The notes: generated by a model from the sequence alone, not told the origin. Counted from the first letter of the stretch, positions 3,791 to 28,573 are shown. The stretch is DNA of 64,000 nt from an uncultured Anaerolineales bacterium (GCA_964651245.1 CAZYVI010000008.1:51437-115436); one strand, 5' to 3'. Made by a program: numbers and translations.

Positions 3791-7339
<3,549 letters not shown>

Positions 7340-7388
7340 CGTGACCTCGTGGCGCGTCGCGTCGTCGCGCAGGAGTCGCTGGGGACCG

Positions 7389-7673
7389 TCAGCCGCGCCG
7401 CCGCGGCGACGCTTGGAAGACGTCGAGCACCTCCGACAGCACCCGCTCGCGGGCATCGGGGTCCTCGCCGCGGATGGCGGTGACGAGGCAGCTGTTGAGG
7501 TGGTCCTCGAGGATCAGCTCGGTGACCTTGTCGAGCGCCGCCTGGACGGCACGCACCTGCTGGATCACGTCGATGCAGTAGGCGCCCTCGTCGGCCATGC
7601 GGGTGATGCCGCGCACGTGGCCCTCGATGCTCTTCAATCGGCGTTGGATCGTGGCCTTGTTGGCGGGGCTCAT
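7389..7673 (-). CDS. csoR: CsoR/RcnR-family copper-sensing repressor
   Basis: [13 protein letters not shown]...YCIDVIQQV...DHLNSC carries the Cys/His/Cys copper ligands; the gene lies directly upstream of copA. Confidence 0.93.
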
Positions 7674-7710: not shown

Positions 7711-8670
7711 TCAGGGGGTCGCCGGCGCCGTGGTCGCCGTGGCGATGGGACCCATGCCGTGCATGTGGTCGTCGGCGTGCGCGCCCGGCGTCATCGCCCC
7801 GCCCATCCCGGGCATCGATCCGCCCATCGGCATCCCGCCGCCCATCGGCATCGTCGGGCTCATCGGCATCGTGCCCGACATCGGCATCGTGCCGCTCATC
7901 GGCATCGACGAGCCCATCATCCCGCGCATCATCTCGCCCATCGCCCCCGCTTCGCCGTGCATGTGGAGCATGCCGCCGGCGCGCATCTCGGCCATCAATC
8001 GCTCGATGTCGGCGCCGGTGCAGCGGCCCATGATCGTCGTGCCCATGCGGTGGCACGGCATGTCGGCCATCTGCGACGTGTCGACGATGACCTGGCCATC
8101 GCCGGCCTCGGCCGAGGCGGTAGTGCCGGCGAACGTGTCGCCCTCGATCGTCATCGGCAGGACCATGCCGGCCTCGGCGTGGCCGCTGACGTGGCACGTC
8201 ATCTCGAACTCGCCCGGCGCCACGAAGATCGCCTTGACCTCGACCGTCGCGCCCGGCAAGAGCGCGTCGGCGCCGATCCGGACGAGCTCGCCGGGATGGG
8301 TGTGGTCCTCGGCCATGTGGGCGCCGGCGCCGATCTGAGCGATCATCGCCGCGGTGTCGCCGCGCGGCATGATCCGCCACTGATGCGCCAACAGGCCGGT
8401 GTTCGTCACGATGAAGCGGTACGGCACGCCGGTCTGGAAGGTCGTCAGCGTCGGCGTGATGGCGTACTCGCCCACGGTGACCTCGACATCGACCGGCTGC
8501 CCGGCGACGGCGGCGACGGGTGCGTTGGGCTCGGTCGCGGTGATGGCGGCAGGCGCGGCGGCGTCATCGACGTCGCCACCCCGGCAGGCGATCAGGCCGG
8601 CGGAGAGCACGACGCTGCCGAGAACCACGGCGACGCGAGCCGGGCTGAAGCGGGTCATCGCGCTGCCCAT
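7711..8670 (-). CDS. Lipoprotein: cupredoxin domain + one Cx10C His/Met repeat + Met-rich tail
   Basis: Lipobox LIAC. Type-1 Cu ligands AHQW...CHVSGHAEAGM, repeat QMADMPCHRMGTTIMGRC, and PMSGTM-type Met repeats. The ATG overlaps the copZ stop (TGATG). Confidence 0.85.
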   Translation of the reverse strand: MGSAMTRFSPARVAVVLGSVVLSAGLIACRGGDVDDAAAPAAITATEPNAPVAAVAGQPVDVEVTVGEYAITPTLTTFQTGVPYRFIVTNTGLLAHQWRIMPRGDTAAMIAQIGAGAHMAEDHTHPGELVRIGADALLPGATVEVKAIFVAPGEFEMTCHVSGHAEAGMVLPMTIEGDTFAGTTASAEAGDGQVIVDTSQMADMPCHRMGTTIMGRCTGADIERLMAEMRAGGMLHMHGEAGAMGEMMRGMMGSSMPMSGTMPMSGTMPMSPTMPMGGGMPMGGSMPGMGGAMTPGAHADDHMHGMGPIATATTAPATP

Positions 8671-8891
8671 CACGCGGCGCTCCCGGCCCGCGGCGGATAG
8701 TCCCACTCCGTCATCGACGCCACGATCTGCTCGACCGTGGCCGGCGGGTCGAACGCGATCGTGACGCGCTTGGCGGCCGGGTCGCCGGTCACGTCGGTGA
8801 CGCCCGGCACGTCGGCGGTGACGACGCGCTTGATCGTGGCGATGCAGTGATCGCAGCTGACGGCGGGGACCTCGAGGGTCACGGACTCCAT
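8670..8891 (-). CDS. copZ: CopZ-like HMA copper chaperone
   Basis: 73 aa with VSCDHC (CxxC) in an HMA-type sequence. Confidence 0.9.
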   Translation of the reverse strand: MESVTLEVPAVSCDHCIATIKRVVTADVPGVTDVTGDPAAKRVTIAFDPPATVEQIVASMTEWDYPPRAGSAA

Positions 8892-8895
8892 AACG

Positions 8896-9174
8896 TCACT
8901 CCTGGGTGGGGTCGGAAGGCAGGGGCGCGGCCCGGTAGCCGGCCCGGTCGATCGCGGCCACGACGGCGTCGACCGTCACGCGCCGCGGGTCGTACACCAC
9001 AAGCGTCTCGCCGCGGGCAAAGGACGTCGACGACTCGGCCACGCCTTCGAGCGACTCGACCGCCAAGTCGACGGTCATGGCGCAGTTGCCGCACGAGAGG
9101 CCGGTCACCGCGAACGTCTGACGGACATGGCCGGCCGGCAACGCCGACGGCGGGCGCTTGAACGAGATCTTCAT
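8896..9174 (-). CDS. Heavy-metal-associated (HMA) domain protein
   Basis: GLSCGNC motif; the start overlaps the stop of the upstream gene. Confidence 0.85.
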   Translation of the reverse strand: MKISFKRPPSALPAGHVRQTFAVTGLSCGNCAMTVDLAVESLEGVAESSTSFARGETLVVYDPRRVTVDAVVAAIDRAGYRAAPLPSDPTQE

Positions 9175-10220
9175 GGCACCACCTCGATCACGCCGTAGTA
9201 CATGCCCATGCTACAGCTGAAGTCGATCTGACCCGGCGCTGCCGCCGGCAGCTCGACCGTGGTCTCGCCGGTCTCGGGCAGCATCGTGACGATGTTGTAG
9301 GCCGGCACGGTGAAGGCGCGGATGCAGCCCTGCGCGCCGTTCGAGACGAGCGTGAGCGTGGTCGGGATGCCGGCCCGGATCGTCAGCCGCGCCGGCTGAT
9401 AGGCGGTGGATGTGACGTCGATTCGCGCCGCTTGGTGGTCGGCCTGCTCCGCCGCGACGGTCGACGCCGACGCCGGCGCGCCCGAGGCCGGCGCCGCCAC
9501 GCTCGGTCGGCCCGCGCGGGCGAGGTCGCCGCGCCAGCCGAGCAGCCGGGCACCGGAGCGCACCGACAGGGCGGCGATCGCCAGGACGACGACGGCCGCG
9601 ACCGGCTTGAAGACGCGGTAGCGCGCGCCGCCCAACCAGGCGCCGCCGACGGCCAGGCCCAGGAACAGCGGCGCCGTGCCGAGGGTGAAGGCCGCCATGA
9701 TCTGCGCCCCGCGCAGCGGCGACTGCGTCCGCGCCGCCAGCAGCTCGACGGCCAGCGTCACGCTGCACGGGATCAAGACCGTCAGGGCGCCCAAGATCGC
9801 CGGCCCCGCCGCGCCACCCTCGCGCGCCCAGTGGCCGATGAACCGCCGGACCGCCCGCGGCGGGCTGGGAGAGAGGCGCCGCAGGGCCGGATGGACGTCG
9901 AACATCTGCAGCACCAGCAGCGCCATGAGCACCCCGACGCCGACGAGCACCCAGCCCTGGAAGCGCGGGCTGAAGACCTGCCCCACCCAACCGAGCCCGG
10001 CGCCGAGCGCCGTGTACGCCGCGGTCTTGGCCGTCAGGAACTGCACCGCCGGCGCCGCCAGGGCGCGCACCGGCGGCCGCTCGCCTTGCCAGCGCGCCGC
10101 CTGCTGGGCCACGGCCGCCGCCAGCAGCCCGCCTTGGACGGCCATGCAACTCAATCCGCCGACCGAGAGGCCGGCCAGGAAGAACAGCCAGAGGCTCGAA
10201 GCCCCGTCGAGATCGGGCAT
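9171..10220 (-). CDS. TauE/SafE (DsbD_2-like) membrane protein with a C-terminal CupA-type cupredoxin domain
   Basis: Start MPDLDG (ATG 10220). Multi-TM region with GGLSCMAVQGG and LIPCSVT; C-terminal GCIRAF...FSCSMGMYYG. Confidence 0.85.
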   Translation of the reverse strand: MPDLDGASSLWLFFLAGLSVGGLSCMAVQGGLLAAAVAQQAARWQGERPPVRALAAPAVQFLTAKTAAYTALGAGLGWVGQVFSPRFQGWVLVGVGVLMALLVLQMFDVHPALRRLSPSPPRAVRRFIGHWAREGGAAGPAILGALTVLIPCSVTLAVELLAARTQSPLRGAQIMAAFTLGTAPLFLGLAVGGAWLGGARYRVFKPVAAVVVLAIAALSVRSGARLLGWRGDLARAGRPSVAAPASGAPASASTVAAEQADHQAARIDVTSTAYQPARLTIRAGIPTTLTLVSNGAQGCIRAFTVPAYNIVTMLPETGETTVELPAAAPGQIDFSCSMGMYYGVIEVVP

Positions 10221-10266
10221 GAGGCGCGGTCCCCTCACCTGCAATGGGTCGTCGCCGACGAAATGG

Positions 10267-10324
10267 TACCCCCCTGGGGGGGGGGATCGCATCCAGCATA
10301 GTCGAGCCTGTCGCCGCGTGTCAA
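10267..10324 (-). promoter_or_regulatory. Sigma70-type promoter (TTGACA-N18-TATGCT) with downstream C/G-tract CsoR-type operator
   Basis: -35 at 10319-10324 and -10 at 10295-10300 (minus strand). TACCCCCCTGGGGGGGGGGAT at 10267-10287 lies just after the predicted +1. Confidence 0.7.
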
Positions 10325-10390
10325 TGCCCAAGGACCTGTATGGCATGAACAGCAGGTTAGAACGCGGCGTCCTCGGCCAGCCCGCACACC

Positions 10391-10446
10391 TTGACGTCGG
10401 GCGTGACCACGCCATACACTAGCGGACACCCCCGGGGGAGGGGGTC
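10391..10446 (+). promoter_or_regulatory. Sigma70-type promoter (TTGACG-N18-TACACT) with downstream C/G-tract operator
   Basis: -35 at 10391-10396, -10 at 10415-10420, then GACACCCCCGGGGGAGGGGGTC at ~10425-10446. Confidence 0.65.
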
Positions 10447-10527
10447 AACCGTTGCGCCTGGCGCTGCCCAGCGACGCAACGCGCCGGCCCGCGGCGCCCT
10501 CCCCTCTCGCACAGGAGCCGTCCATCC

Positions 10528-11115
10528 ATGCTTCCGATCGCCCATGCCCGCCGCCGCACCGCGGTCGCCGCCGCGGCCGTCGCCGTGTCGATCGCCCTGG
10601 GCGCGTGCGGCAGCGCCGAGCCCGCCGAACCGGCCGCCGAAGCCCCCGCCGCCACCGAGGCCGCTCCGATCGCGGCCACCGACGCACCGGCCGCCACGGA
10701 CGCCGCGCCGGCCGCCGACCCGCTGGCGGCCGCCGGTGGCGACGTCTTCGTCGTCGACCACGTCTCGATGGCCGACCAGCCGTGCCATGTCATGGACCAC
10801 ACGATCATGGGCCAGTGCACCGACGACGACATCGTCACGGTCCTCGCCACCACCGATTGGTTGCCGTTCGACGCCGCGCAGATGGCCGACAGCCCGTGTC
10901 ATGTCATGGACGGCACGATGATGGGCCAGTGCAGCGAGGACGACATCGCCCGGCTGCGCGTCTCCCAGGCGATCGTCGTCGACACGGCGCAGATGGCCGA
11001 CAGCCCGTGCCACGTCATGGGCGGCACGATCATGGGCCGCTGCAGCGTCGAGGACGTGGCTCGGCTGGCGGACGAGGTGCGGCAGACGCGCCCGGCGATG
11101 CCGGCCCAGCCCTGA
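10528..11115 (+). CDS. Lipoprotein made almost entirely of three Cx10C His/Met repeats (putative copper-binding protein)
   Basis: Lipobox LGAC, Ala/Pro linker, then three copies of MADxPCHVMxxTxMGxC. Confidence 0.85.
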   Translation: MLPIAHARRRTAVAAAAVAVSIALGACGSAEPAEPAAEAPAATEAAPIAATDAPAATDAAPAADPLAAAGGDVFVVDHVSMADQPCHVMDHTIMGQCTDDDIVTVLATTDWLPFDAAQMADSPCHVMDGTMMGQCSEDDIARLRVSQAIVVDTAQMADSPCHVMGGTIMGRCSVEDVARLADEVRQTRPAMPAQP

Positions 11116-11149
11116 TCGATCGTCGCGCGGATGACGGCGGCGCGGTCGA

Positions 11150-13402
11150 TCAGCCGCCGTCGTCCGCGCCGTGCGCGGCGCCCGCGTCGGCGCCTGTCCC
11201 GTGGTCCATCCGGTCGCCGTAGATCGCCGGCATCGAACCGTCTTCGTTGGCCACGTCGAACTGGAACATCATCCCGGTCTCGAGGTGCTCGGCGATGTGG
11301 CAATGCACCATCCAGGCGCCCGGGTTCGTGACGTCCATGACCAGGTCGGCCGTCTCGCCGATCGGAACGAGGACGGTGTCCTTCCAGACGAGGTCGCGGT
11401 TCGGCACCCCGTTGCGGCCGACGACGACGAAGCGCTGGCCGTGGATGTGGATCGGGTGCTGCATCGGGTGGGCGCTGTCGGGCCGGTTGTGCAGGCGGAT
11501 CTTGACCTTGTCGCCGACGCGGAAGCGGTAGCGCAGCGCCTCGTTCTCGGCGCCGCTGGCGATGTCGCGCAACACCCAGCGCGTCTCGGCGGCTGTCGAC
11601 TGGCGGTTGGCGGCGAGCATGTCGTCCTCCCACTCGACGCCGCCGGCTGCGCCGTGGGCGCCGTCCTCGTCGTCGTGGACGTCGCCGGCGCCGCTTCCGC
11701 CGCTGTCGCCTGCCGCGCCACCGTCGGTGGTGAGCAGGCTCGGCATGTCGATGTCGAGCTCGAGTTCGACGTCGGGGGCGGCGAAGGCCAGGGCCAGGAC
11801 GTCGCGCATGTCGCCGACGACGTCGGTGTGGATGCGCTCGACGTCGAAGGCGCGGCGGACCGCGTCGTCCCTTCGGCCGGCCGTGGTCACCGTCACCGTC
11901 CCGAGGTCGTAGCGCCGGGTCGGGGTGTCGTGGACGAGCGTCGCCGGCCCCGGCCGATCGAACTGGACCTCGACGATGGCCCGCTCGGCCGGCGCGAGCA
12001 GGATCCGATCGAGGAAGACCTCCTCGGCGAACGCGCCGAGGTCGCCGCCGACGCGCTTCATCCGGGCGCCCTCGAAGCCGAACTCGAACGGTCGGACGTT
12101 GGCGACGTTGACGACGTAGAACCTTACGACGTCACCTTGTCGCACGTCGAGGTCGTAGCGGTCGCGGCCGTTGACGAGCATCGTGTTGCCGAAGCGGCCC
12201 ATGACCGTGAAGTCGGCCACGGGACCACCAAAGGGCACGAGCTCGCCGTCCTCGATGAGCACGTCGTCGAGGACGATCACCTCGTCGCGATCGACCGGGT
12301 TGAAGTAGCCCGGGTCGGACGCCTCGACGACGATGGCGCCGTACATCCCGCCGTCCTGCTGGATGTCCTCGCGGACGTGCGGGTGATACCAGTAGACGCC
12401 CGGATCGGGAAAGGTCAGGGTGTAGGTGTGGCGGCCACCCGGCGGCACGGCCGGCTGGGTCACGCCGGGCACGCCGTCGTCCTTGTTGGCGTGGCGCAGG
12501 CCGTGCCAGTGGATCGTGGTGGGCATGTCGATCGCGTTCGTGAAGTCGACCGTCACGGTGCTGCCCTGGGCCACCCGCAGGATCGGCCCGCCGACCTCGC
12601 CGTTGTAGCCGTAGCCCGGCACCGCGAGGTCGTCGATCGTGCGGGTGATCACGGTCGCCGCGATCTCGACCCGGGCGCCGTCGGCCAGGTCGAACGTGGT
12701 CACGGGCCGTTGCGGCTCGCGGCGCAGCCCGGAGCGCTGGCTGCCCGGCAGGATCGTCGGCCGCTCGGTCGGGCGCGCCGACGCGGCGCTGCTGCCTCGC
12801 TGGGCGCGGATCTCGGCCGCCAGCCGCTGGATGTCGGCTTCGGTGCAGCGGCCCATGATGATCCCGAACATCGCGTGGCAGGCCGCGCTCTTCATCGCGT
12901 TCGGGTCGAACGTGATCCCGTCGCCGAGGTCGCGGACGCCGTCGTCGGACGGGGCGTCGGCGGCATCGCCCACGTCGCTCGTCGGCAATTCGACCACGCC
13001 TTGACCGCCCTTCGACCGCACGAGCTCGGCCAGCACCGCCAGGTCGTCGTCGGTGCAGCGGCCCATGAGGACCGTGTCCATGCCGTGGCACGGGAAGTCG
13101 GCCATCTGGTTCGGGTCGTAGACGATCGGGCCGAGGCCGCCGTCGGACGGGACGACGACGCGGGTGGGGGCGGGGGACGGGTCGGCGTCGCGCTCCGGAT
13201 CGCCCGCAACGGCGGACGGACGCGACGCCGCAGGGTCGCCGTCCTCGGCCGCGCCGCGGGCGGCCGGCGCATCCGGTGTGTCGGTCGGGCCGGTCGTGCA
13301 GCCGCCGAGCGTGGCGAGCGCCACGGTCAGCGCGGTGATCCAGGCGCCACGCGACGCCAAGGAGAACGGATCGAGTCCGGTGTGGCGGAAACGAGACGAC
13401 AT
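11150..13402 (-). CDS. Multicopper oxidase lipoprotein with two N-terminal Cx10C His/Met repeats
   Basis: Lipobox LGGC. Motifs HWHG, WYHPH, HPIHIHG and HCHIAEHLETGMM give the complete T1/T2/T3 ligand set. Confidence 0.93.
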   Translation of the reverse strand: MSSRFRHTGLDPFSLASRGAWITALTVALATLGGCTTGPTDTPDAPAARGAAEDGDPAASRPSAVAGDPERDADPSPAPTRVVVPSDGGLGPIVYDPNQMADFPCHGMDTVLMGRCTDDDLAVLAELVRSKGGQGVVELPTSDVGDAADAPSDDGVRDLGDGITFDPNAMKSAACHAMFGIIMGRCTEADIQRLAAEIRAQRGSSAASARPTERPTILPGSQRSGLRREPQRPVTTFDLADGARVEIAATVITRTIDDLAVPGYGYNGEVGGPILRVAQGSTVTVDFTNAIDMPTTIHWHGLRHANKDDGVPGVTQPAVPPGGRHTYTLTFPDPGVYWYHPHVREDIQQDGGMYGAIVVEASDPGYFNPVDRDEVIVLDDVLIEDGELVPFGGPVADFTVMGRFGNTMLVNGRDRYDLDVRQGDVVRFYVVNVANVRPFEFGFEGARMKRVGGDLGAFAEEVFLDRILLAPAERAIVEVQFDRPGPATLVHDTPTRRYDLGTVTVTTAGRRDDAVRRAFDVERIHTDVVGDMRDVLALAFAAPDVELELDIDMPSLLTTDGGAAGDSGGSGAGDVHDDEDGAHGAAGGVEWEDDMLAANRQSTAAETRWVLRDIASGAENEALRYRFRVGDKVKIRLHNRPDSAHPMQHPIHIHGQRFVVVGRNGVPNRDLVWKDTVLVPIGETADLVMDVTNPGAWMVHCHIAEHLETGMMFQFDVANEDGSMPAIYGDRMDHGTGADAGAAHGADDGG

Positions 13403-13462
13403 GACGGCAGACCTCACATGGGTGGAAGCGTTCGGCGCGCTACGGCGCATGACAGCGTATGA

Positions 13463-13523
13463 TTGACCCCTCCCCCCAGGGGGGGCTATAGAGAGTCTAG
13501 ACACGACGACGGTCCGCTGTCAA
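13463..13523. promoter_or_regulatory. Divergent overlapping promoters sharing one C/G-tract operator
   Basis: + strand: TTGACC(13463)-N18-TATAGA(13487). - strand: TTGACA(13523-13518)-N18-TAGACT(13499-13494). Operator ACCCCTCCCCCCAGGGGGGGCTA at ~13466-13488. Confidence 0.65.
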
Positions 13524-13555
13524 CGGGACCCGCATCGTCAACAAGGGAGGCTGGG

Positions 13556-15625
13556 ATGTCCGAGACCCACGACGGCCATGCGGCGCACCGCCGGCCGGAG
13601 CGCGCTGCGGCGCGGGTGCCGCACGCCCACCACGACATGGCCGATGCCCGCTCCGCCGCGGCGATGGAGGCGGACATGCGCCGCCGCTTCTGGATCGCGC
13701 TTGCCCTGGGCATCCCGGCGATCGCCTACACCCCGATGGTCGGCCACGCGCTCGGACTCCGGCTGCCGACGCCGTTCGGTTTCCCGGCCGACTGGATGTC
13801 GCTGGCCTTCGCAACGCCCGTCGCGCTCTGGGCGAGCTCGGTGTTCCATGTGGGCGCGTGGCGGTCCGTCCGCTCGGGCGTCCTGAACATGAGCGTCCTC
13901 GTCTCGCTCGGCATCCTCGTCAGCTATCTGTTCAGCCTCGGCCTGACGTTCCTCGCTCCCGGCCAGGAGACGTTCTACGAAGCGGCCGTCATGCTCGCCG
14001 TCTTTCTCCTTTTCGGCCACTGGATGGAGATGCGCGCCCGCCGTGGCAGCACGGACGCCGTACGGCTGCTGCTCGACATGGCGCCCCAGCAGGCCACCGT
14101 CGATCGCGACGGCCGTCTCGAGACCGTGCCCGTCGGCGAGGTCGTCGTCGGCGACGTCCTCGTCCTGCGGCCGGGGGACAAGGTCGCCGTCGACGGCGAG
14201 GTCCTCGACGGCGAGACCGCGATCGACGAGTCCATGATCACGGGCGAGTCGCTGCCCGTGGCGAAGGCGGCGGGCGACACCGTCATCGCCGGCACGATCG
14301 GCCAGTCCGGCGCCGTCCGCTACCGCGCGACGAAGGTCGGCGGTGCGACGGCGCTGGCGCAGATCGTGGCGATGGTCGAGCGGGCGCAGAACTCGAAGGC
14401 GCCGGCTCAACGCCTGGCGGACCGCGCCGCCCACTACCTCGTGCTCCTCGCCGTCGGTTCGGGGCTGGCGACGTTCGCGGTGTGGACGCTCGTCGCCGGC
14501 GAGCCGCTGCTCACGGCGCTCACGTTCGCCGTCTCGGCTGTGGTCATCGCCTGCCCCGACGCGCTGGGCCTGGCCACGCCGACGGCGGTCATGGTGGCCA
14601 CCGACCTCGGCGCCAAGCACGGCGTGCTGTTCAAGGAGGCCGTGTCCCTCGAGCTCGCGGCCCGGATCGACGCCGTGATCATCGACAAGACCGGGACGCT
14701 GACCGAGGGACGGCCGCGCGTGACGGACGTCGTCGCCCTGCCGGGGCAGACCGAGGCCGACGTCCTCGCGCGCGCCGCGGCCGTCGAGCGCCGCAGCGGC
14801 CATCCCCTGTCGAAGGCGGTCCTCGACGAGGCCGAACGGCGGTCGCTCGACGTCCCGGCCGAGGTGGACGCCTTCGTCTCCATCGCCGGGCTCGGTGTCC
14901 GCGGCACCGTCGCGGGGCGCGACGTCCTCGTCGGCACGCTGCGCTTGTTCGAGCAGCACGGTATCGATGTCGCCGCCGTCGGCGAGGCCGCGGAACGGCT
15001 CCTGGCGGAGGGCAAGACGCTCATGCTCGTGGCCTTCGACGGCCGCGCCGCCGGGGTCATCGCCGCCACGGATCCGGTTCGGCCGACGGCCCGCGCCGCC
15101 GTCGACGGGCTGAAGGCGCTCGGCATCGACGTCGTCATGATGACGGGCGACAACCGTCACACGGCCGAGGCCGTGGCCAAGCAGGTCGAGATCGACCGCG
15201 TGGTGGCCGAGGTCCTGCCGGCGGACAAGGCCGGCGAGGTCGCCCGCCTGCAGGCCGAGGGACGGTTCGTGGCGATGGTCGGCGACGGCGTGAACGACGC
15301 GCCGGCGCTGGCGCAGGCCGAACTCGGCATCGCCATCGGCGCCGGCACCGACGTCGCGGTCGAGGCCGGCGACATCGTCCTCATGCGCTCCGACCCAGCC
15401 GACATCCTGCGGGCGATCAAGCTGTCCAAGGCGACCGTCACGAAGATGCGCCAGAACCTGTTCTGGGCCGCCATCTACAACGTGGTGGCGATCCCGATCG
15501 CGGCCGGCGTGTTCTACCGCTCGCTCGGGATCATGCTGCGTCCGGAGTTCGGCGCGCTGGCGATGTCGGCCAGCTCGATCACCGTCGTGAGCAACGCCCT
15601 CCTGCTGCGGCGGGCGAAACTCTAG
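13556..15625 (+). CDS. P1B-type heavy-metal (copper) ATPase, CopB-like, with His-rich N-terminus and CPD motif
   Basis: GGGAGG RBS and ATG 13556. Motifs TGES, IACPDALG, DKTGT, TGDN, GDGVNDAP, IYN and MSASS. Confidence 0.93.
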   Translation: MSETHDGHAAHRRPERAAARVPHAHHDMADARSAAAMEADMRRRFWIALALGIPAIAYTPMVGHALGLRLPTPFGFPADWMSLAFATPVALWASSVFHVGAWRSVRSGVLNMSVLVSLGILVSYLFSLGLTFLAPGQETFYEAAVMLAVFLLFGHWMEMRARRGSTDAVRLLLDMAPQQATVDRDGRLETVPVGEVVVGDVLVLRPGDKVAVDGEVLDGETAIDESMITGESLPVAKAAGDTVIAGTIGQSGAVRYRATKVGGATALAQIVAMVERAQNSKAPAQRLADRAAHYLVLLAVGSGLATFAVWTLVAGEPLLTALTFAVSAVVIACPDALGLATPTAVMVATDLGAKHGVLFKEAVSLELAARIDAVIIDKTGTLTEGRPRVTDVVALPGQTEADVLARAAAVERRSGHPLSKAVLDEAERRSLDVPAEVDAFVSIAGLGVRGTVAGRDVLVGTLRLFEQHGIDVAAVGEAAERLLAEGKTLMLVAFDGRAAGVIAATDPVRPTARAAVDGLKALGIDVVMMTGDNRHTAEAVAKQVEIDRVVAEVLPADKAGEVARLQAEGRFVAMVGDGVNDAPALAQAELGIAIGAGTDVAVEAGDIVLMRSDPADILRAIKLSKATVTKMRQNLFWAAIYNVVAIPIAAGVFYRSLGIMLRPEFGALAMSASSITVVSNALLLRRAKL
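15446..15585 (+). repeat. 140-bp exact direct repeat, copy 1 (3' end of the ATPase gene)
   Basis: ATGCGCCAGAACCTG...TCGATCACCGT is identical to 18003-18142 on base-by-base reading. Confidence 0.92.
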
Positions 15626-24828: not shown

Positions 24829-27390
24829 TCAAACCCGGGCCACCCGGGCCAGGATCTGGCTGACGACCTCGTAGTTGACCGTCCCGAGCCAGCCGGCGAC
24901 GACCTCGGCCGTGATCGACCGGCCGCCCTGATGGCCGATCAGGACGACCTCGTCGCCGGTTCGGACGCCCGGGATCGCGGTGACGTCGACCGCCGACTGG
25001 TCCATCGAGACGCGCCCGACGAGCGGGGCGGCGGCGCCGCGGACCAGGACGTGCCGCCAGCGCGTCGGGCCGCGGCGGAAGCCGTCGGCGTAGCCGACCG
25101 GGATCGTGGCGACGCGCGACGCCCGCTCGGCGACCCAGGTCCGCCCGTAGCCGACGGCCTCGCCGGGCGCCAGGTCGTGGACCTGGGCCACCTGGGTCTT
25201 CCAGGCCAGCGCCGGCCGCAGCGCGTCGTCGCCGACGGCGGCCGAGGGCGCGAGGCCGTAGAGCGCGATGCCGGGCCGGACGAGGTCGAACACGGCATCG
25301 TCGCGGCCGAGCAGGGCGGCGCTGTTGGCGGCGTGCGCCAGCGGCGGCCGCACGCCGGCGGCCGCGGCGTCGGCCACGACGCGGCGGAACGTCGCCAGCT
25401 GGGCGTCGGTGGCGGCGCGCGCACCGGGCTCGACCTCGTCGGCGGCGGCCAGGTGGGTGAACAGGCCCTCGACCGCGAGGTGGGGCAGACCGGCCAGCGC
25501 GCCAAGGAACGCCACCGCGTCCGCCGGCGGCAGGCCGAGCCGGTGCAGGCCGGTGTCGACCTTGACGTGGACGGCGACGATGCGGTCCAGGTCGCGGCCG
25601 GCGGCGTCGAGCGCGACGGCCGTGTCGTGGTCGTAGACCGTCAGGGCGACGCCGAGGCCGACGGCGTCGCGGGCCTGCCAGCCGGGCGTCCAGCCCAGGA
25701 CGAGGATCGGGGCGTCGATCCCTTCGCGGCGCAGCGCCGCCGCCTCGGCCAGGCAGGCCACGCCGAGGCGGTCGGCGCCGTTGTGGAGCACGGTGCGGGC
25801 GACGCGCACGGCGCCGTGGCCGTAGGCGTCGGCCTTGATGACGGCCATGAGCGGCACGCCGCCGGCGCGGGCCTTGAGCCGCCGGGTGTTGTCGGCGATC
25901 GCGCCGAGGTCGATCTCGAGCCAGGTCGGCCGATCGGGGCGCAACACGACGATCTGGCGCCAGGCGGCGTCCTGCCGCACCAGGACGTCGCCGGCGCGGT
26001 CGGGATCGGCCATGAGGCCGGCGGTGACGTGCTCCATGCGCGTCACGGCGCTGCCCTTGACGAGCGCCACGGCATCGGCGTCGAGCAGCGGCCGGACGGC
26101 GGCGATGGCGTCCTCGGCGCGGTAGGTGACGGCGATCCGGTCGGCGGCGAGCCCGGCCGCCCGCGCCCCGGCGGCGATGTGCTCGGCCTCGGCGCCGCGG
26201 GTCACGAGGGCGTCGACGGTGCGCGCGGCGCGTGCGCCGACGGCGTGGTGGGCCTCGGCCGAGGCCGCGCCAAGCTCGGCCATGTCGCCCAGGACGGCGA
26301 TGCGCCGGCCGGCCGGCAGCGCCGCCAGGACGTCGAGCGCGGCCTCGACCGCGGCCGGGCTGGCGTTGTAGCTGTCGTCGAGGATCGTGCTGCCGGCGTA
26401 ACCGGCGAGCGGGTTCAGCCGCCCCTTCTGTGGTGGCAGCGTCGCCAGCCGCTCGACGACGTCGGCCGTGGTCAGGCCGAACCGCCGACCGGCGGCGACC
26501 GCCATCAGCGCGGCGGTGACGAAGTGCCGGCCGAGCCACGGGATGCGGGCAGGAGCGACGTCGTCGCCGGCGACGATGTCGAACGCCGTGCCGTCGCGCG
26601 CCAGCCGCACGTCGCGCGCGTACAGGTCGGCCGCCCGGTCGCCGTCGGCGCTGACGCGGACGACCGGCGCGCGCGTCCGGGTCGCCATCCGCGCCACGCG
26701 GGCGTCGTCGGCGTTGAGGACGGCCAGGCCGCCGGGGGCAAGCGCCTCGACGAGCGCGCCCTTCTCGCGCTCGACGCCGTCGAGGTCGCCCAGGGCGTGG
26801 AGGTGGGCGGCGGCGACACGCGTCACGAGCGCCACGGCCGGCGGGGCGATGGCCGCCAACTCGGCGATCTCGCCGAAGCGGTCCGTAGCCATCTCGAGCA
26901 CCAGCACCTCGGGTGCCGCGGCGCCGTCGTCGATCTCGCCCAGGGCGATCGGCAGGCCGAAGGTGTCGTTGAAGTTGCCGGGGTTGCGGAAGACGGACAG
27001 CTGCCCGGCCAGGACGTGGGCGACGAGCTCCTTGGCCGAGGTCTTGCCGACGCTGCCGGTGATCGCCACGACCGGCAGGCCGAGCCGGCGCACCCGCCAC
27101 GCCGCCCAGCGCTCCAGCGCGGCGCGCGTGTCGGGCACGACGATGCACGTGGCCCCCCAGCTCGCGACGTCGGCCGGCCGCTGGCACAGGACGCCGGTCG
27201 CACCGGCGCGCAGGGCGGCGGCGATGTGGTCGTGGCCGTCGGCCTTGGCCGTCCGGACCGCGACGAACAGCTGGCCGGGACGGACGATGCGCGAGTCGAA
27301 GCCGAAGCCGCACCACGCATCGGCAAACGCCGGCCCGGCGACGGCGGCGTCGGGGACGGCGGCGAGCAGGTCGGCCAGGTGGACCGTCAT
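24829..27390 (-). CDS. murF-alr: Bifunctional MurF ligase / alanine racemase fusion
   Basis: MurF: ITGSVGKTSAKE, GNFNDTFG, DDSYNASP, LGDMAELG. Alr: AVIKADAYGHG (PLP Lys), RPGIALYG, YADG, GRVSMDQ. Confidence 0.95.
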   Translation of the reverse strand: MTVHLADLLAAVPDAAVAGPAFADAWCGFGFDSRIVRPGQLFVAVRTAKADGHDHIAAALRAGATGVLCQRPADVASWGATCIVVPDTRAALERWAAWRVRRLGLPVVAITGSVGKTSAKELVAHVLAGQLSVFRNPGNFNDTFGLPIALGEIDDGAAAPEVLVLEMATDRFGEIAELAAIAPPAVALVTRVAAAHLHALGDLDGVEREKGALVEALAPGGLAVLNADDARVARMATRTRAPVVRVSADGDRAADLYARDVRLARDGTAFDIVAGDDVAPARIPWLGRHFVTAALMAVAAGRRFGLTTADVVERLATLPPQKGRLNPLAGYAGSTILDDSYNASPAAVEAALDVLAALPAGRRIAVLGDMAELGAASAEAHHAVGARAARTVDALVTRGAEAEHIAAGARAAGLAADRIAVTYRAEDAIAAVRPLLDADAVALVKGSAVTRMEHVTAGLMADPDRAGDVLVRQDAAWRQIVVLRPDRPTWLEIDLGAIADNTRRLKARAGGVPLMAVIKADAYGHGAVRVARTVLHNGADRLGVACLAEAAALRREGIDAPILVLGWTPGWQARDAVGLGVALTVYDHDTAVALDAAGRDLDRIVAVHVKVDTGLHRLGLPPADAVAFLGALAGLPHLAVEGLFTHLAAADEVEPGARAATDAQLATFRRVVADAAAAGVRPPLAHAANSAALLGRDDAVFDLVRPGIALYGLAPSAAVGDDALRPALAWKTQVAQVHDLAPGEAVGYGRTWVAERASRVATIPVGYADGFRRGPTRWRHVLVRGAAAPLVGRVSMDQSAVDVTAIPGVRTGDEVVLIGHQGGRSITAEVVAGWLGTVNYEVVSQILARVARV

Positions 27391-27460
27391 CGCCTGAGGC
27401 GAGGGCCGGCCCCGACGCCGTCGCCGAGCGCCGCGCGTGCGGCGGGCCGGACGCCCGGGC

Positions 27461-28573
27461 TCACGCCAGCGGCCCGCGCTTCGCCCGGTGCGCGGCCAGC
27501 GAGCGGTCGAGGATCGTTGACACGAGGTCGTGGGGCAGGATGCCGTCCTCGATCGGGCCGAGGAAGACGGTCGAGCTCGGGCTCGAGCCGGGCAGCGTGT
27601 TGGGCTCGCCGACGATGATGCGCCGCGCCCCGCCGTCGTCGGCGCGGGCGTCGCCGCCGTCGGGCGCCACGACGTACATGTCGATGCGGGCGAAGACGCG
27701 CAGCTGCAGCGCCGTGAAGGCGCGCTCGGCGACGTCGCGCACGGCGGCGAGCACCGCGGCCGGCAGGCGGGCCGGTGTGATGTTCTCGCCGTGGCCGGGC
27801 AGGAACTTCTCCTCGATCGTCAGGAACGCCCCCTTGGCCGGCGTCTCGGTCGGGGCGAACGCCCGCGGCCGCCCGCCCTCGTCCTCGAGCACGACGACAG
27901 TGACCTCGACGCCGCGCAGGTGCTCCTCGACGAGGGCGACGGTGTCCCAGGCCAGGGCATCGTCGATCGCAGCGCGCAGCGCGGCGCGGTCGCCCGGCAC
28001 GCCCAGCGCCGTCGAGCAGCCCTCGCGGCTGGGCTTGACGACGCACGGGTAGCCCAGCGCGGTCTCGACGCGGGCGATGGCGGCGTCGGCGCCGGCGGTC
28101 CACTCGGCGGCCGTGACCGCCACCGTCGCCGGGACGTCGATGCCGGCCTGGCGCAGCAGGTCGCGCTGGACGCGCTTGTCCATCCCGAGCGCGCTGCCGA
28201 GGACGCCCGAGCCGACGTAGGGCACGTCGAGCAGCTCGAGCAGCCCCTGGAAGCAGCCATCCTCGCCGTACTTGCCGTGCAGGCCGATGTAGACGACATC
28301 GAACCGCTCCGGCAGCGCCTCCCACGGCAGCCGCTCGGCGTCGTGCGCCAGCCGGGCGTCGATGTCGGCGGTGGTGTTCTGGACGACGAGCGGCAGCGGG
28401 ATCGCCCAGAGCCCGCCCTGGGCGTCCATGTAGACCGCCGACGGGTCCCAGCGGCTGCGGTCGATCGTCTGGAAGATGTGCCGCCCGCTCTCGAGCGAGA
28501 TCTCGCGCTCCGACGAGCGGCCGCCGAGGACGACGGCGACGCGGGGGCGGGGGGCGGGGGGTGGCGGGGTCAT
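27461..28573 (-). CDS. ddl: D-Ala-D-Ala ligase-family protein, paralogue B (EEKF / EGCS variant)
   Basis: Start MTPPPPAP (ATG 28573). Motifs GGRSSERE, LHGKYGEDG, MDK, RID and EPNTLPG. Confidence 0.9.
   Translation of the reverse strand: MTPPPPAPRPRVAVVLGGRSSEREISLESGRHIFQTIDRSRWDPSAVYMDAQGGLWAIPLPLVVQNTTADIDARLAHDAERLPWEALPERFDVVYIGLHGKYGEDGCFQGLLELLDVPYVGSGVLGSALGMDKRVQRDLLRQAGIDVPATVAVTAAEWTAGADAAIARVETALGYPCVVKPSREGCSTALGVPGDRAALRAAIDDALAWDTVALVEEHLRGVEVTVVVLEDEGGRPRAFAPTETPAKGAFLTIEEKFLPGHGENITPARLPAAVLAAVRDVAERAFTALQLRVFARIDMYVVAPDGGDARADDGGARRIIVGEPNTLPGSSPSSTVFLGPIEDGILPHDLVSTILDRSLAAHRAKRGPLA

Follow-up and report, generated by a model that had tools for sequence, protein, structure and literature searches.

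Introduction

Extracytoplasmic copper carriers such as CusF, CopC, the Met-rich inserts and CutF are known mostly from Proteobacteria, and periplasmic Cu(I) sites are typically formed by Met and His rather than by Cys. In CusF the Cu(I) ligands are His36, Met47 and Met49, which are found on adjacent strands. To our knowledge, the external handling of CopA-exported copper in single-membrane bacteria and the Cu(I) supply of cuprous oxidases are only partly understood. Here we describe a small Cys/His/Met module that occurs six times, in three lipoproteins, in a stretch of 64,000 nucleotides from an uncultured Anaerolineales bacterium (GCA_964651245.1, CAZYVI010000008.1:51437-115436). This stretch is hereafter called the window, and positions are counted from its first letter unless another locus is named. 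The module almost certainly constitutes a new extracytoplasmic domain family, it sits inside a known kind of copper-resistance system and its function is very probably copper handling.

The proposed site of the module resembles CusF in that one His and two Met on neighbouring beta-strands are combined with a capping residue, in what are in both cases small extracytoplasmic Cu(I) carriers. A variant family member, P0048, is moreover encoded directly upstream of a HlyD-type membrane-fusion gene, as in cusF-cusB. There is no relation in sequence or fold, however: CusF (PF11604, CusF_Ec) has no Cys and adopts an OB-fold of about 90 aa with an H-x10-M-x-M site and a Trp cap, whereas the module is a strand-hairpin-helix unit of 38 aa with a Cys pair, lipid-anchored, arranged in tandem and fused to its presumed targets. 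With CopZ and the HMA domains of CopA it shares the occurrence of the same small fold on a stand-alone carrier and at the N-terminus of a recipient enzyme, which suggests like-with-like docking and ligand exchange, but HMA domains are cytoplasmic, show a ferredoxin-like beta-alpha-beta-beta-alpha-beta fold of about 65 aa and use the CxxC thiolates of a GMxCxxC loop, while the module is extracytoplasmic and differs in both fold and motif. The Met-rich insert of CueO and the beta-hairpin over the T1 (type 1 copper) site of the Thermus thermophilus multicopper oxidase (MCO) are likewise accessory Met-bearing elements that recruit the Cu(I) substrate (PMC11494321, PMC11766367), yet these are internal, largely flexible and lack Cys or a fixed motif, whereas the module is a folded N-terminal domain that is also present in other proteins. 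CutF, of the DUF2946 family, is a small exported protein with a Cys/His motif, encoded beside a multicopper oxidase gene and tied to CopZ-CopA export (PMC8456105). It differs in its CxxHC (CxxxC) and C-terminal Pro-rich motifs, is proteobacterial and neither repeated nor fused, and the module has no DUF2946 match. Finally, one of the window's lipoproteins shares with CopI the layout of a cupredoxin combined with Met/His-rich sequence, but the His/Met regions of CopI are intrinsically disordered (PMC13308877), whereas the window protein has a folded module between its cupredoxin domain and its Met-rich tail.

Materials and methods

The window was scanned in six frames with the regular expression CH.M.{4}MG.C and with a looser version thereof. 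Chance expectation was computed from the window's own six-frame residue frequencies, and 50 shuffled sequences served as control. A profile of 95 family copies was run against all six-frame open reading frames (ORFs) of the window. Domain assignment was by hmmscan against the whole Pfam and NCBIfam libraries, applied to the window's host proteins and eight further family members.

The family census was an index-free search of 1.84 billion (1.84e9) representative proteins with a profile of 38 columns. A word-index search with a 46-column repeat alignment returned only three short proteins from seven candidates, which reflects a limitation of the index rather than absence. When genome contigs were scanned, the single 195-aa query was too strict and gave nothing, whereas an alignment-based scan gave eight loci. 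Genomic context was determined by tblastn of the window's cop proteins on these eight loci and on L001, L013 and L017; the 11 canonical loci counted are those with enough flanking DNA.

Structural models were made with AlphaFold2 (AF2), for a single module from an alignment of 74 repeat sequences and for the three-repeat protein, and scored by the predicted local distance difference test (pLDDT). DSSP was used to assign bridges and Foldseek to compare models with PDB.

Results

Six diverged copies in three lipoproteins

The pattern matches the window exactly six times (Table 1), against a chance expectation of 1e-5 and zero matches in the shuffled sequences; the looser version adds no match in the six frames. 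The 95-copy profile identified the same six (domain E 1e-17 to 1e-22, 57-74 bits), and these scores, the lipoboxes of the host proteins and the surrounding cop cluster place all of them in the proposed family. No seventh or degenerate copy was found with this profile anywhere in the window, for instance in the C-terminal extension of CopA (next best E about 1). A first-pass annotation of the window had located six copies exactly where both searches find them, and its spacing of 33 nt from Cys to Cys holds in six out of six (11 codons, C-x10-C). Of its nine invariant residues, D4, M8, C13, H14, M16, M21, G22, C24 and D28, all are invariant in the alignment of the window copies, though D4 and D28 vary in the wider family. 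Its size of about 30 aa was an underestimate: the conserved unit runs over about 38 aa, from a strand with the sequence [IVL]-[VT]-[VIYF]-D to the end of an amphipathic helix.

The six copies share 34-61% of their amino acids and 54-75% of their nucleotides and are therefore neither recent duplications nor assembly artefacts. Recent intragenomic duplication or gene conversion was considered and is ruled out by this nucleotide identity in combination with the grouping of copies by position across genomes, described below.

Each host protein carries a lipobox (LIAC, LGAC and LGGC for the three), and their cysteines comprise the lipobox Cys, the T1 copper Cys and the module pairs, with no others. 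One of the proteins consists almost solely of the repeat, as had been noticed before: besides a signal peptide, its 195 aa contain a linker of about 45 aa, rich in Ala and Pro, followed by three modules back to back. Matches of this protein to Peptidase_C4 (E 0.16) and to LpqN (E 1.3e-3, over the signal peptide and the Ala-rich region) were rejected as noise.

The second host contains the sequence CHVSGHAEAGM and shows sub-threshold Pfam matches to Cupredoxin_1, Cu-oxidase_2 and SoxE. Given a CopI match at E 1.6e-5 in NCBIfam, with 24.7 bits against a cut-off of 280, this protein is, by its sequence, cupredoxin-like while missing the CopI equivalog threshold. Directly after its module follows a tail of about 95 aa (residues 237-331, 7711-8000, minus strand) of which 30-35% is Met, with up to 13 Met per 40 residues and MPMSGT/MPMGGG repeats; in homologues the tail is Met-, His- or Asp-rich instead. 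The longest ORF, with its start at 8706, is probably longer than the gene itself. The start ATG at 8670 shares bases with the stop of the HMA gene before it (TGATG, 8668-8673, minus strand), an overlap that suggests translational coupling of the two genes.

The third host has Pfam matches to Cu-oxidase_3 (1.6e-30), Cu-oxidase (2.7e-11) and Cu-oxidase_2 (6.6e-35) as well as the copper motifs HWHG, HPH, HIHG and HCHIAEH, and hence is a multicopper oxidase. No Met-rich window was found in it.

The module matches no described domain

At E<=1, neither Pfam nor NCBIfam gave any match on the repeat. HMA (PF00403) was absent from the three host proteins at the same threshold, while two neighbouring small genes and CopA match it strongly. 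YHS/TRASH, CopC/PcoC, PCuAC, DUF1541 (CopL) and DUF2946 (CutF-like) were not detected in the hosts or in the eight further members either, and for CusF (PF11604) there was neither a Pfam match to the module nor a Foldseek PDB match with E<1. A hmmsearch of the PDB sequences with a 20-copy profile had no match at E<=10. The best Foldseek E-values against PDB were 3.1 for the single module and 1.6 for the three-repeat protein, with low TM-scores, Foldseek being weak on domains of about 40 residues. HflXr, UreE and tryptophan hydroxylase appeared in the PDB profile and Foldseek searches and were rejected as noise. The only family member found with a name in RefSeq/nr is called 'hypothetical protein', and a search of the literature on the motif and on copper systems of Chloroflexi retrieved no description of the module. 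The initial impression that the repeat corresponds to no known motif was thus borne out by all sequence and structure searches.

Conservation separates a His/Met set from a probable Cys/Gly scaffold

The set M8-C13-H14-M16-M21-G22-C24 is intact in 79 of the 95 copies. G22 and C24 are present in all 95 and C13 in 93 of 94. H14 is lost, to Q, T or A, in six copies, every one of which also lacks M8, M16 and M21 and retains C13, G22 and C24. Since the four are lost as a block and Cys and Gly are kept, the His/Met unit would seem separable from the Cys/Gly pair; in this alignment the His and the three Met behave like one dispensable functional unit, and the Cys pair and the Gly like a scaffold. The degenerate copies are second or third copies (in P0011, P0015, P0023, P0024, P0035 and P0037), keep the helix and always adjoin an intact copy. 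An additional Met is found at position 11 in 19 of the 95 copies, which yields M-x2-M.

AF2 predicts the single module with a mean pLDDT of 87.2 as a strand (4-6), a hairpin (16-18/21-23) and a helix (28-41). In the three-repeat protein the pLDDT is 94-97 over residues 71-185 and the same pattern of secondary structure is repeated three times. In all four modelled modules the DSSP bridges fit a single antiparallel ladder, P12:x23, H14:M21 and M16:T19, corresponding to residue pairs 85:96, 87:94 and 89:92 of the three-repeat protein. In this predicted register H14, M16 and M21 are on one face of the hairpin and C13, V15, I20 and C24 on the other, hydrophobic face, with G22 modelled directly opposite C13.

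A small family on the outside of the cell, encoded among copper genes

The census identified 48 representatives among the 1.84e9 proteins, 31 of which at E<=1e-10. The eight genome loci derive from seven Chloroflexota metagenome-assembled genomes (MAGs; Epilinea, Anaerolineales, Ardenticatenales, Caldilineae) and one unclassified bacterial MAG. Most family members have a lipobox and the remainder are transmembrane-anchored or fragments, in agreement with the extracellular location proposed at the outset. Several architectures are represented. Lipoproteins of 120-200 aa carry two or three repeats, multicopper oxidases carry two modules at the N-terminus, and cupredoxin lipoproteins carry one or two modules ahead of a tail rich in Met, His or acidic residues. 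In DUF2231 membrane proteins one to four modules are combined with His-rich linkers, and some short proteins have a single module and a transmembrane anchor. Weaker variants lack the helix and have a hairpin loop of five residues; they are seen in an MCO whose contig appears archaeal and in a His-rich lipoprotein with two copies.

Module genes lie among some of CopA, CsoR, HMA, DsbD_2-cupredoxin, MCO and cupredoxin lipoprotein genes in 11 out of 11 loci, so the canonical homologues with enough flanking DNA are in cop loci throughout; the eight further members scanned again have no Pfam assignment on the repeat. The Ardenticatenales MAG SJ541 (L007) has the gene order of the window, with 47-94% protein identity, and the window accordingly derives from a related Chloroflexota of high GC. 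The three host classes occur together in L007, L009, L010 and L011. In L005 and L008 a single strand carries the genes in the order dsbD2cup-HMA-repeat-copA. In these two loci and in L001 the gene of the stand-alone repeat protein neighbours that of CopA, and there is no oxidase gene within 10 kb. The protein is therefore associated primarily with the pump, and its role is not only oxidase-directed.

The nearest relative of a module copy in another protein is usually the copy that takes the equivalent position in a host of the same class, and not one in the same genome (for cupredoxin copy 1 in 8 of 11, and for copy 2 of the three-repeat proteins likewise in 8 of 11). This grouping by host protein and position in the sequence comparison indicates that the module positions are old and separately maintained.

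Two of the DUF2231 proteins, P0012 (L013 3625-5061) and P0036 (L017 8001-8813), are encoded in clusters of DsbD_2-cupredoxin, HMA, CsoR and CopA genes, which points to a copper-related role of this DUF2231 subgroup. The two-copy variant P0048 (L015 29-499) is a lipoprotein in which two copies of a variant hairpin motif (MPCHxMPDGSLMGDC), lacking the helix, are accompanied by a tail rich in His; its gene ends 4 nt upstream of the HlyD/Biotin_lipoyl_2 membrane-fusion gene (L015 503-1759). P0040 (L014 4203-5840) is a multicopper oxidase on a contig of 39% GC, which appears archaeal because of its Ribosomal_S6e and PAC2 neighbours. It has one variant motif at the N-terminus and a second between domains 2 and 3, just before a conserved IEWEDDML, the interval that holds the substrate-entrance hairpin in the Thermus MCO (PMC11766367). 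The following gene (L014 5840-6406) is MauE-like.

The copper cluster of the window

Pfam and NCBIfam identify a complete copper cluster in the window (Table 1), in DNA of 70-78% GC. Flanking genes for DnaG, a Mur ligase/alanine racemase ORF and HtpG indicate that the locus is chromosomal. The Mur ligase/alanine racemase ORF (24832-27819, minus strand) is one stop-to-stop frame of 996 codons, with Mur ligase domains at residues 173-590 and a complete alanine racemase at 636-996; it is either a fusion or two in-frame genes.

The CopA ORF of 1221 aa has a C-terminal extension of about 360 aa (3791-4876, minus strand) without a Pfam match. Residues 930-1080, approximately, are a homologue of the cupredoxin domain of the CopI-like lipoprotein, with about 35% identity. 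L007 retains the extension, and the CopA genes of L001 and L013 are likewise long (1153-1174 aa). The second ATPase (13556-15625, plus strand) has no HMA domain, a His-rich N-terminus (HDGHAAH...HAHHD) and a transmembrane metal site with CPD in place of CPC/CPH (VVIACPDALGLATP).

The window contains exactly two copies of a G/C-tract site of 20-21 nt, TTGACCCC(C)TCCCCC(C)(A)GGGGG, with zero expected. The site is found in the Ardenticatenales MAG as well (L007 13032-13052), at the place equivalent to the second copy. The classical CsoR operator, TACCC-N-GGGTA, was looked for and is absent. By its sequence the site is probably a -35 box fused to a putative operator of CsoR type, the C-tract/G-tract layout being what we take to be a form of such operators. 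The position of the second copy implies later starts for both flanking genes, at ATG 13556 for the second ATPase and, because the site lies inside the longest oxidase ORF, probably downstream of 13504 for the oxidase.

Table 1. Module copies, motif matches, genes and operator-like sites of the window.
Feature	Position	Strand	Basis or remark
Module copy 1, three-repeat lipoprotein (FVVDHVSMADQPCHVMDHTIMGQCTDDDIVTVLATTDW)	10747..10860	+	motif scan, alignment, profile; AF2 pLDDT 94-97, strand-hairpin-helix
Module copy 2, three-repeat lipoprotein (LPFDAAQMADSPCHVMDGTMMGQCSEDDIARLRVSQAI)	10861..10974	+	motif scan, alignment, profile, AF2
Module copy 3, three-repeat lipoprotein (IVVDTAQMADSPCHVMGGTIMGRCSVEDVARLADEVRQ)	10972..11085	+	motif scan, alignment, profile; single-domain AF2 pLDDT 87.2
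Single module, CopI-like lipoprotein	7978..8091	-	between cupredoxin domain and Met-rich tail; motif scan, alignment, profile
Module copy 1, multicopper oxidase N-terminus	13013..13126	-	motif scan, alignment, profile
Module copy 2, multicopper oxidase N-terminus	12803..12916	-	CHAMF signature, typical of this position across genomes
Motif match	8020-8055	-	cupredoxin lipoprotein ORF 7711-8706
Motif matches	10783-10818, 10897-10932, 11008-11043	+	ORF 10528-11115
Motif matches	13055-13090, 12845-12880	-	near N-terminus of ORF 11150-13504 (oxidase)
Three-repeat lipoprotein gene, 195 aa	10528..11115	+	signal peptide with lipobox LGAC, disordered Ala/Pro linker, three modules, nothing else
CopI-like cupredoxin lipoprotein gene	7711..8670	-	T1-type C-x4-H-x4-M site, one module, Met-rich tail
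Three-domain multicopper oxidase lipoprotein gene	11150..13504	-	two N-terminal modules, no Met-rich insert
CopA, CPC-type Cu(I) P1B ATPase	3791..7456	-	N-terminal HMA; likely start ATG 7339
CsoR-family copper-sensing repressor	7389..7673	-	Trns_repr_metal, E 3.6e-26
Two small HMA (CxxC) CopZ-like genes	8670-8891, 8896-9174	-	Pfam HMA
DsbD_2 (CcdA-like) membrane protein fused to Cupredoxin_1	9171..10415	-	Pfam
Second P1B-type ATPase	13463..15625	+	likely start ATG 13556
Operator-like G/C-tract site TTGACCCCCTCCCCCGGGGG	10429..10448	-	divergent intergenic, DsbD_2-cupredoxin operon / three-repeat gene
Operator-like site, second copy	13463..13483	+	divergent intergenic, oxidase / second ATPase

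Discussion

The reading that we favour on balance is that the module has a His/Met site and a structural disulfide and relays CopA-exported Cu(I) to the oxidase. Its parts are not equally secure. A His/Met Cu(I) site with a structural disulfide, as deduced from the models, is moderately likely, while the relay of Cu(I) to the oxidase is a tentative proposal that we hold with somewhat less confidence than would make it probable. Of the two chemistries suggested in the first-pass annotation, ligation by the Cys or a disulfide-closed loop with one His and three Met, the second fits the conservation in the family and the predicted hairpin geometry better. The docking of chaperone, cupredoxin and oxidase by the module, also put forward there, is conjectural.

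The module would be an independently folding unit of about 38 residues on the outer face of the cytoplasmic membrane, made of a strand, a loop, a beta-hairpin with a two-residue turn and an amphipathic helix. C13 and C24 may form a buried disulfide across the base of the hairpin, for which G22, opposite C13, would make room. The sequence [ST]-x-x-[DE] is a helix N-cap, and [ST]25-x-x-[DE]28 could accordingly cap the helix. H14 and M16, at i and i+2 of one strand, M21 across from them on the other strand and M8 from the loop would then constitute an exposed thioether/imidazole Cu(I) site of CusF type. In such a scheme the cytoplasmic HMA chaperones would hand Cu(I) to CopA, which would export it, and the three-repeat lipoprotein, on its flexible linker of about 45 residues, would serve as a membrane-tethered acceptor or buffer with three His/Met sites. 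From there Cu(I) could pass by ligand exchange to the like modules on the oxidase N-terminus and on the CopI-like cupredoxin, which would feed it to the redox centres for oxidation to Cu(II). Because the window's oxidase is without a Met-rich insert, its two modules may substitute for the recruitment insert of CueO, whose Met-rich domain recruits Cu(I) (PMC11494321). The variant motif that P0040 has in the interval of the Thermus substrate-entrance hairpin agrees with this scheme, as does the cusF-cusB-like placement of P0048.

Several points weigh against this reading. The invariant Cys would be expected equally if they were the primary Cu(I) ligands, and in 9 of 11 loci a gene of the CcdA/DsbD_2 type, a thiol-reductant-exporter family, is near the module, which fits Cys that need reduction. 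Three loci have the stand-alone protein without a nearby oxidase, so that the relay is not obligatory. C13 and C24 are diagonal in the ladder, not directly opposite, and both the Cys-Cys distance and the ligand geometry were deduced from the DSSP register of AF2 models, the single-module model moreover stemming from an alignment of paralogous repeats. Finally, the degenerate copies were detected only through neighbouring canonical ones, which introduces ascertainment.

The foremost rival, unlikely in our estimation and yet the one that deserves most attention, is a thiolate site in which the two Cys and His14, perhaps with a Met, are the ligands, as in Sco, CutF or CueP, and are kept reduced or re-reduced by the DsbD_2-cupredoxin protein. 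The module would then be a high-affinity metallochaperone inserting cofactor copper into oxidase or cupredoxin, or a redox-gated Cu(I) trap, and not a low-affinity relay. C13 and C24 are indeed among the most conserved positions, and the DsbD_2/Cupredoxin_1 gene lies adjacent to the module gene or nearby, within about 2 kb, in 9 of the 11 related loci. In L005 and L008 it is on the strand of the repeat gene, consistent with one operon. DsbD_2-cupredoxin-HMA trios, however, occur also in cop loci without the module, and exposed extracytoplasmic Cu(I) carriers mostly use Met and His. A precedent is CutF, a small exported protein with a CxxHC motif on which the activity of the MCO CutO depends (PMC8456105). 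Degenerate copies with only the Cys could still bind Cu(I) two-coordinately, but the joint loss of the four His/Met positions, independently of the Cys pair, suggests two separable features. In the predicted structure, furthermore, the Cys pair and the His/Met set are on opposite faces, with the Cys on the hydrophobic helix side, and an invariant Gly opposite C13 is easier explained by a disulfide.

We regard it as improbable that the module is a metal-free, disulfide-stabilised interaction or spacer domain that holds the lipoproteins to one another, to CopA or to the envelope, with Met and His as interface. The module is common to exactly those proteins that are expected to cooperate, the model of the repeat protein shows its three modules as a single rigid body, and degenerate copies without His/Met persist, all of which would suit such a role. 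Interfaces, on the other hand, rarely fix one His and three Met, as 79 of 95 copies do in varied hosts and positions; these residues are the canonical soft-metal ligand set, every context is copper-specific, and both the extra Met at position 11 and the adjoining tails, rich in His, Met or acidic residues, are features typically seen in metal capture. Least probable of all is another metal or state, be it the trapping of Ag(I) or Hg(II) or a Cu(II) site that serves the cupredoxin domains in electron transfer or sensing: CusF-like Met/His sites do bind Ag(I) too and cupredoxin domains are unusually abundant in the cluster (CopA, DsbD_2, lipoprotein), but the regulator is of CsoR type, the pumps are of CopA type, no mer or sil genes were seen and a Met3His set favours Cu(I) over Cu(II).

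A wider and more doubtful reading is a homotypic chain. One fold on a lipid-anchored carrier, a cuprous oxidase, a CopI-like cupredoxin and DUF2231 proteins would be the extracytoplasmic counterpart of CopZ/HMA, with the Cys pair possibly a redox gate run by the DsbD_2-cupredoxin protein. CopA-exported Cu(I) would in that case hop along identical sites until oxidised, and with a redox gate copper capture and release would be coupled to the reducing power of the cell.

The family is rare and phylogenetically narrow, and its reach is therefore limited. It does present a compact domain of 38 residues on a stand-alone carrier and on its likely targets, within a strictly conserved copper cluster of Chloroflexota. 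Small and tandem as it is, it could make an attractive engineered metal-binding tag. If it binds Cu(I), it would be a new minimal solution to thioether/imidazole Cu(I) coordination and would offer a donor and an acceptor that both carry one and the same module; its sequence would also be a new marker by which copper loci could be annotated in phyla that have been little studied. The module is thereby a candidate for an extracellular copper relay in monoderm bacteria.

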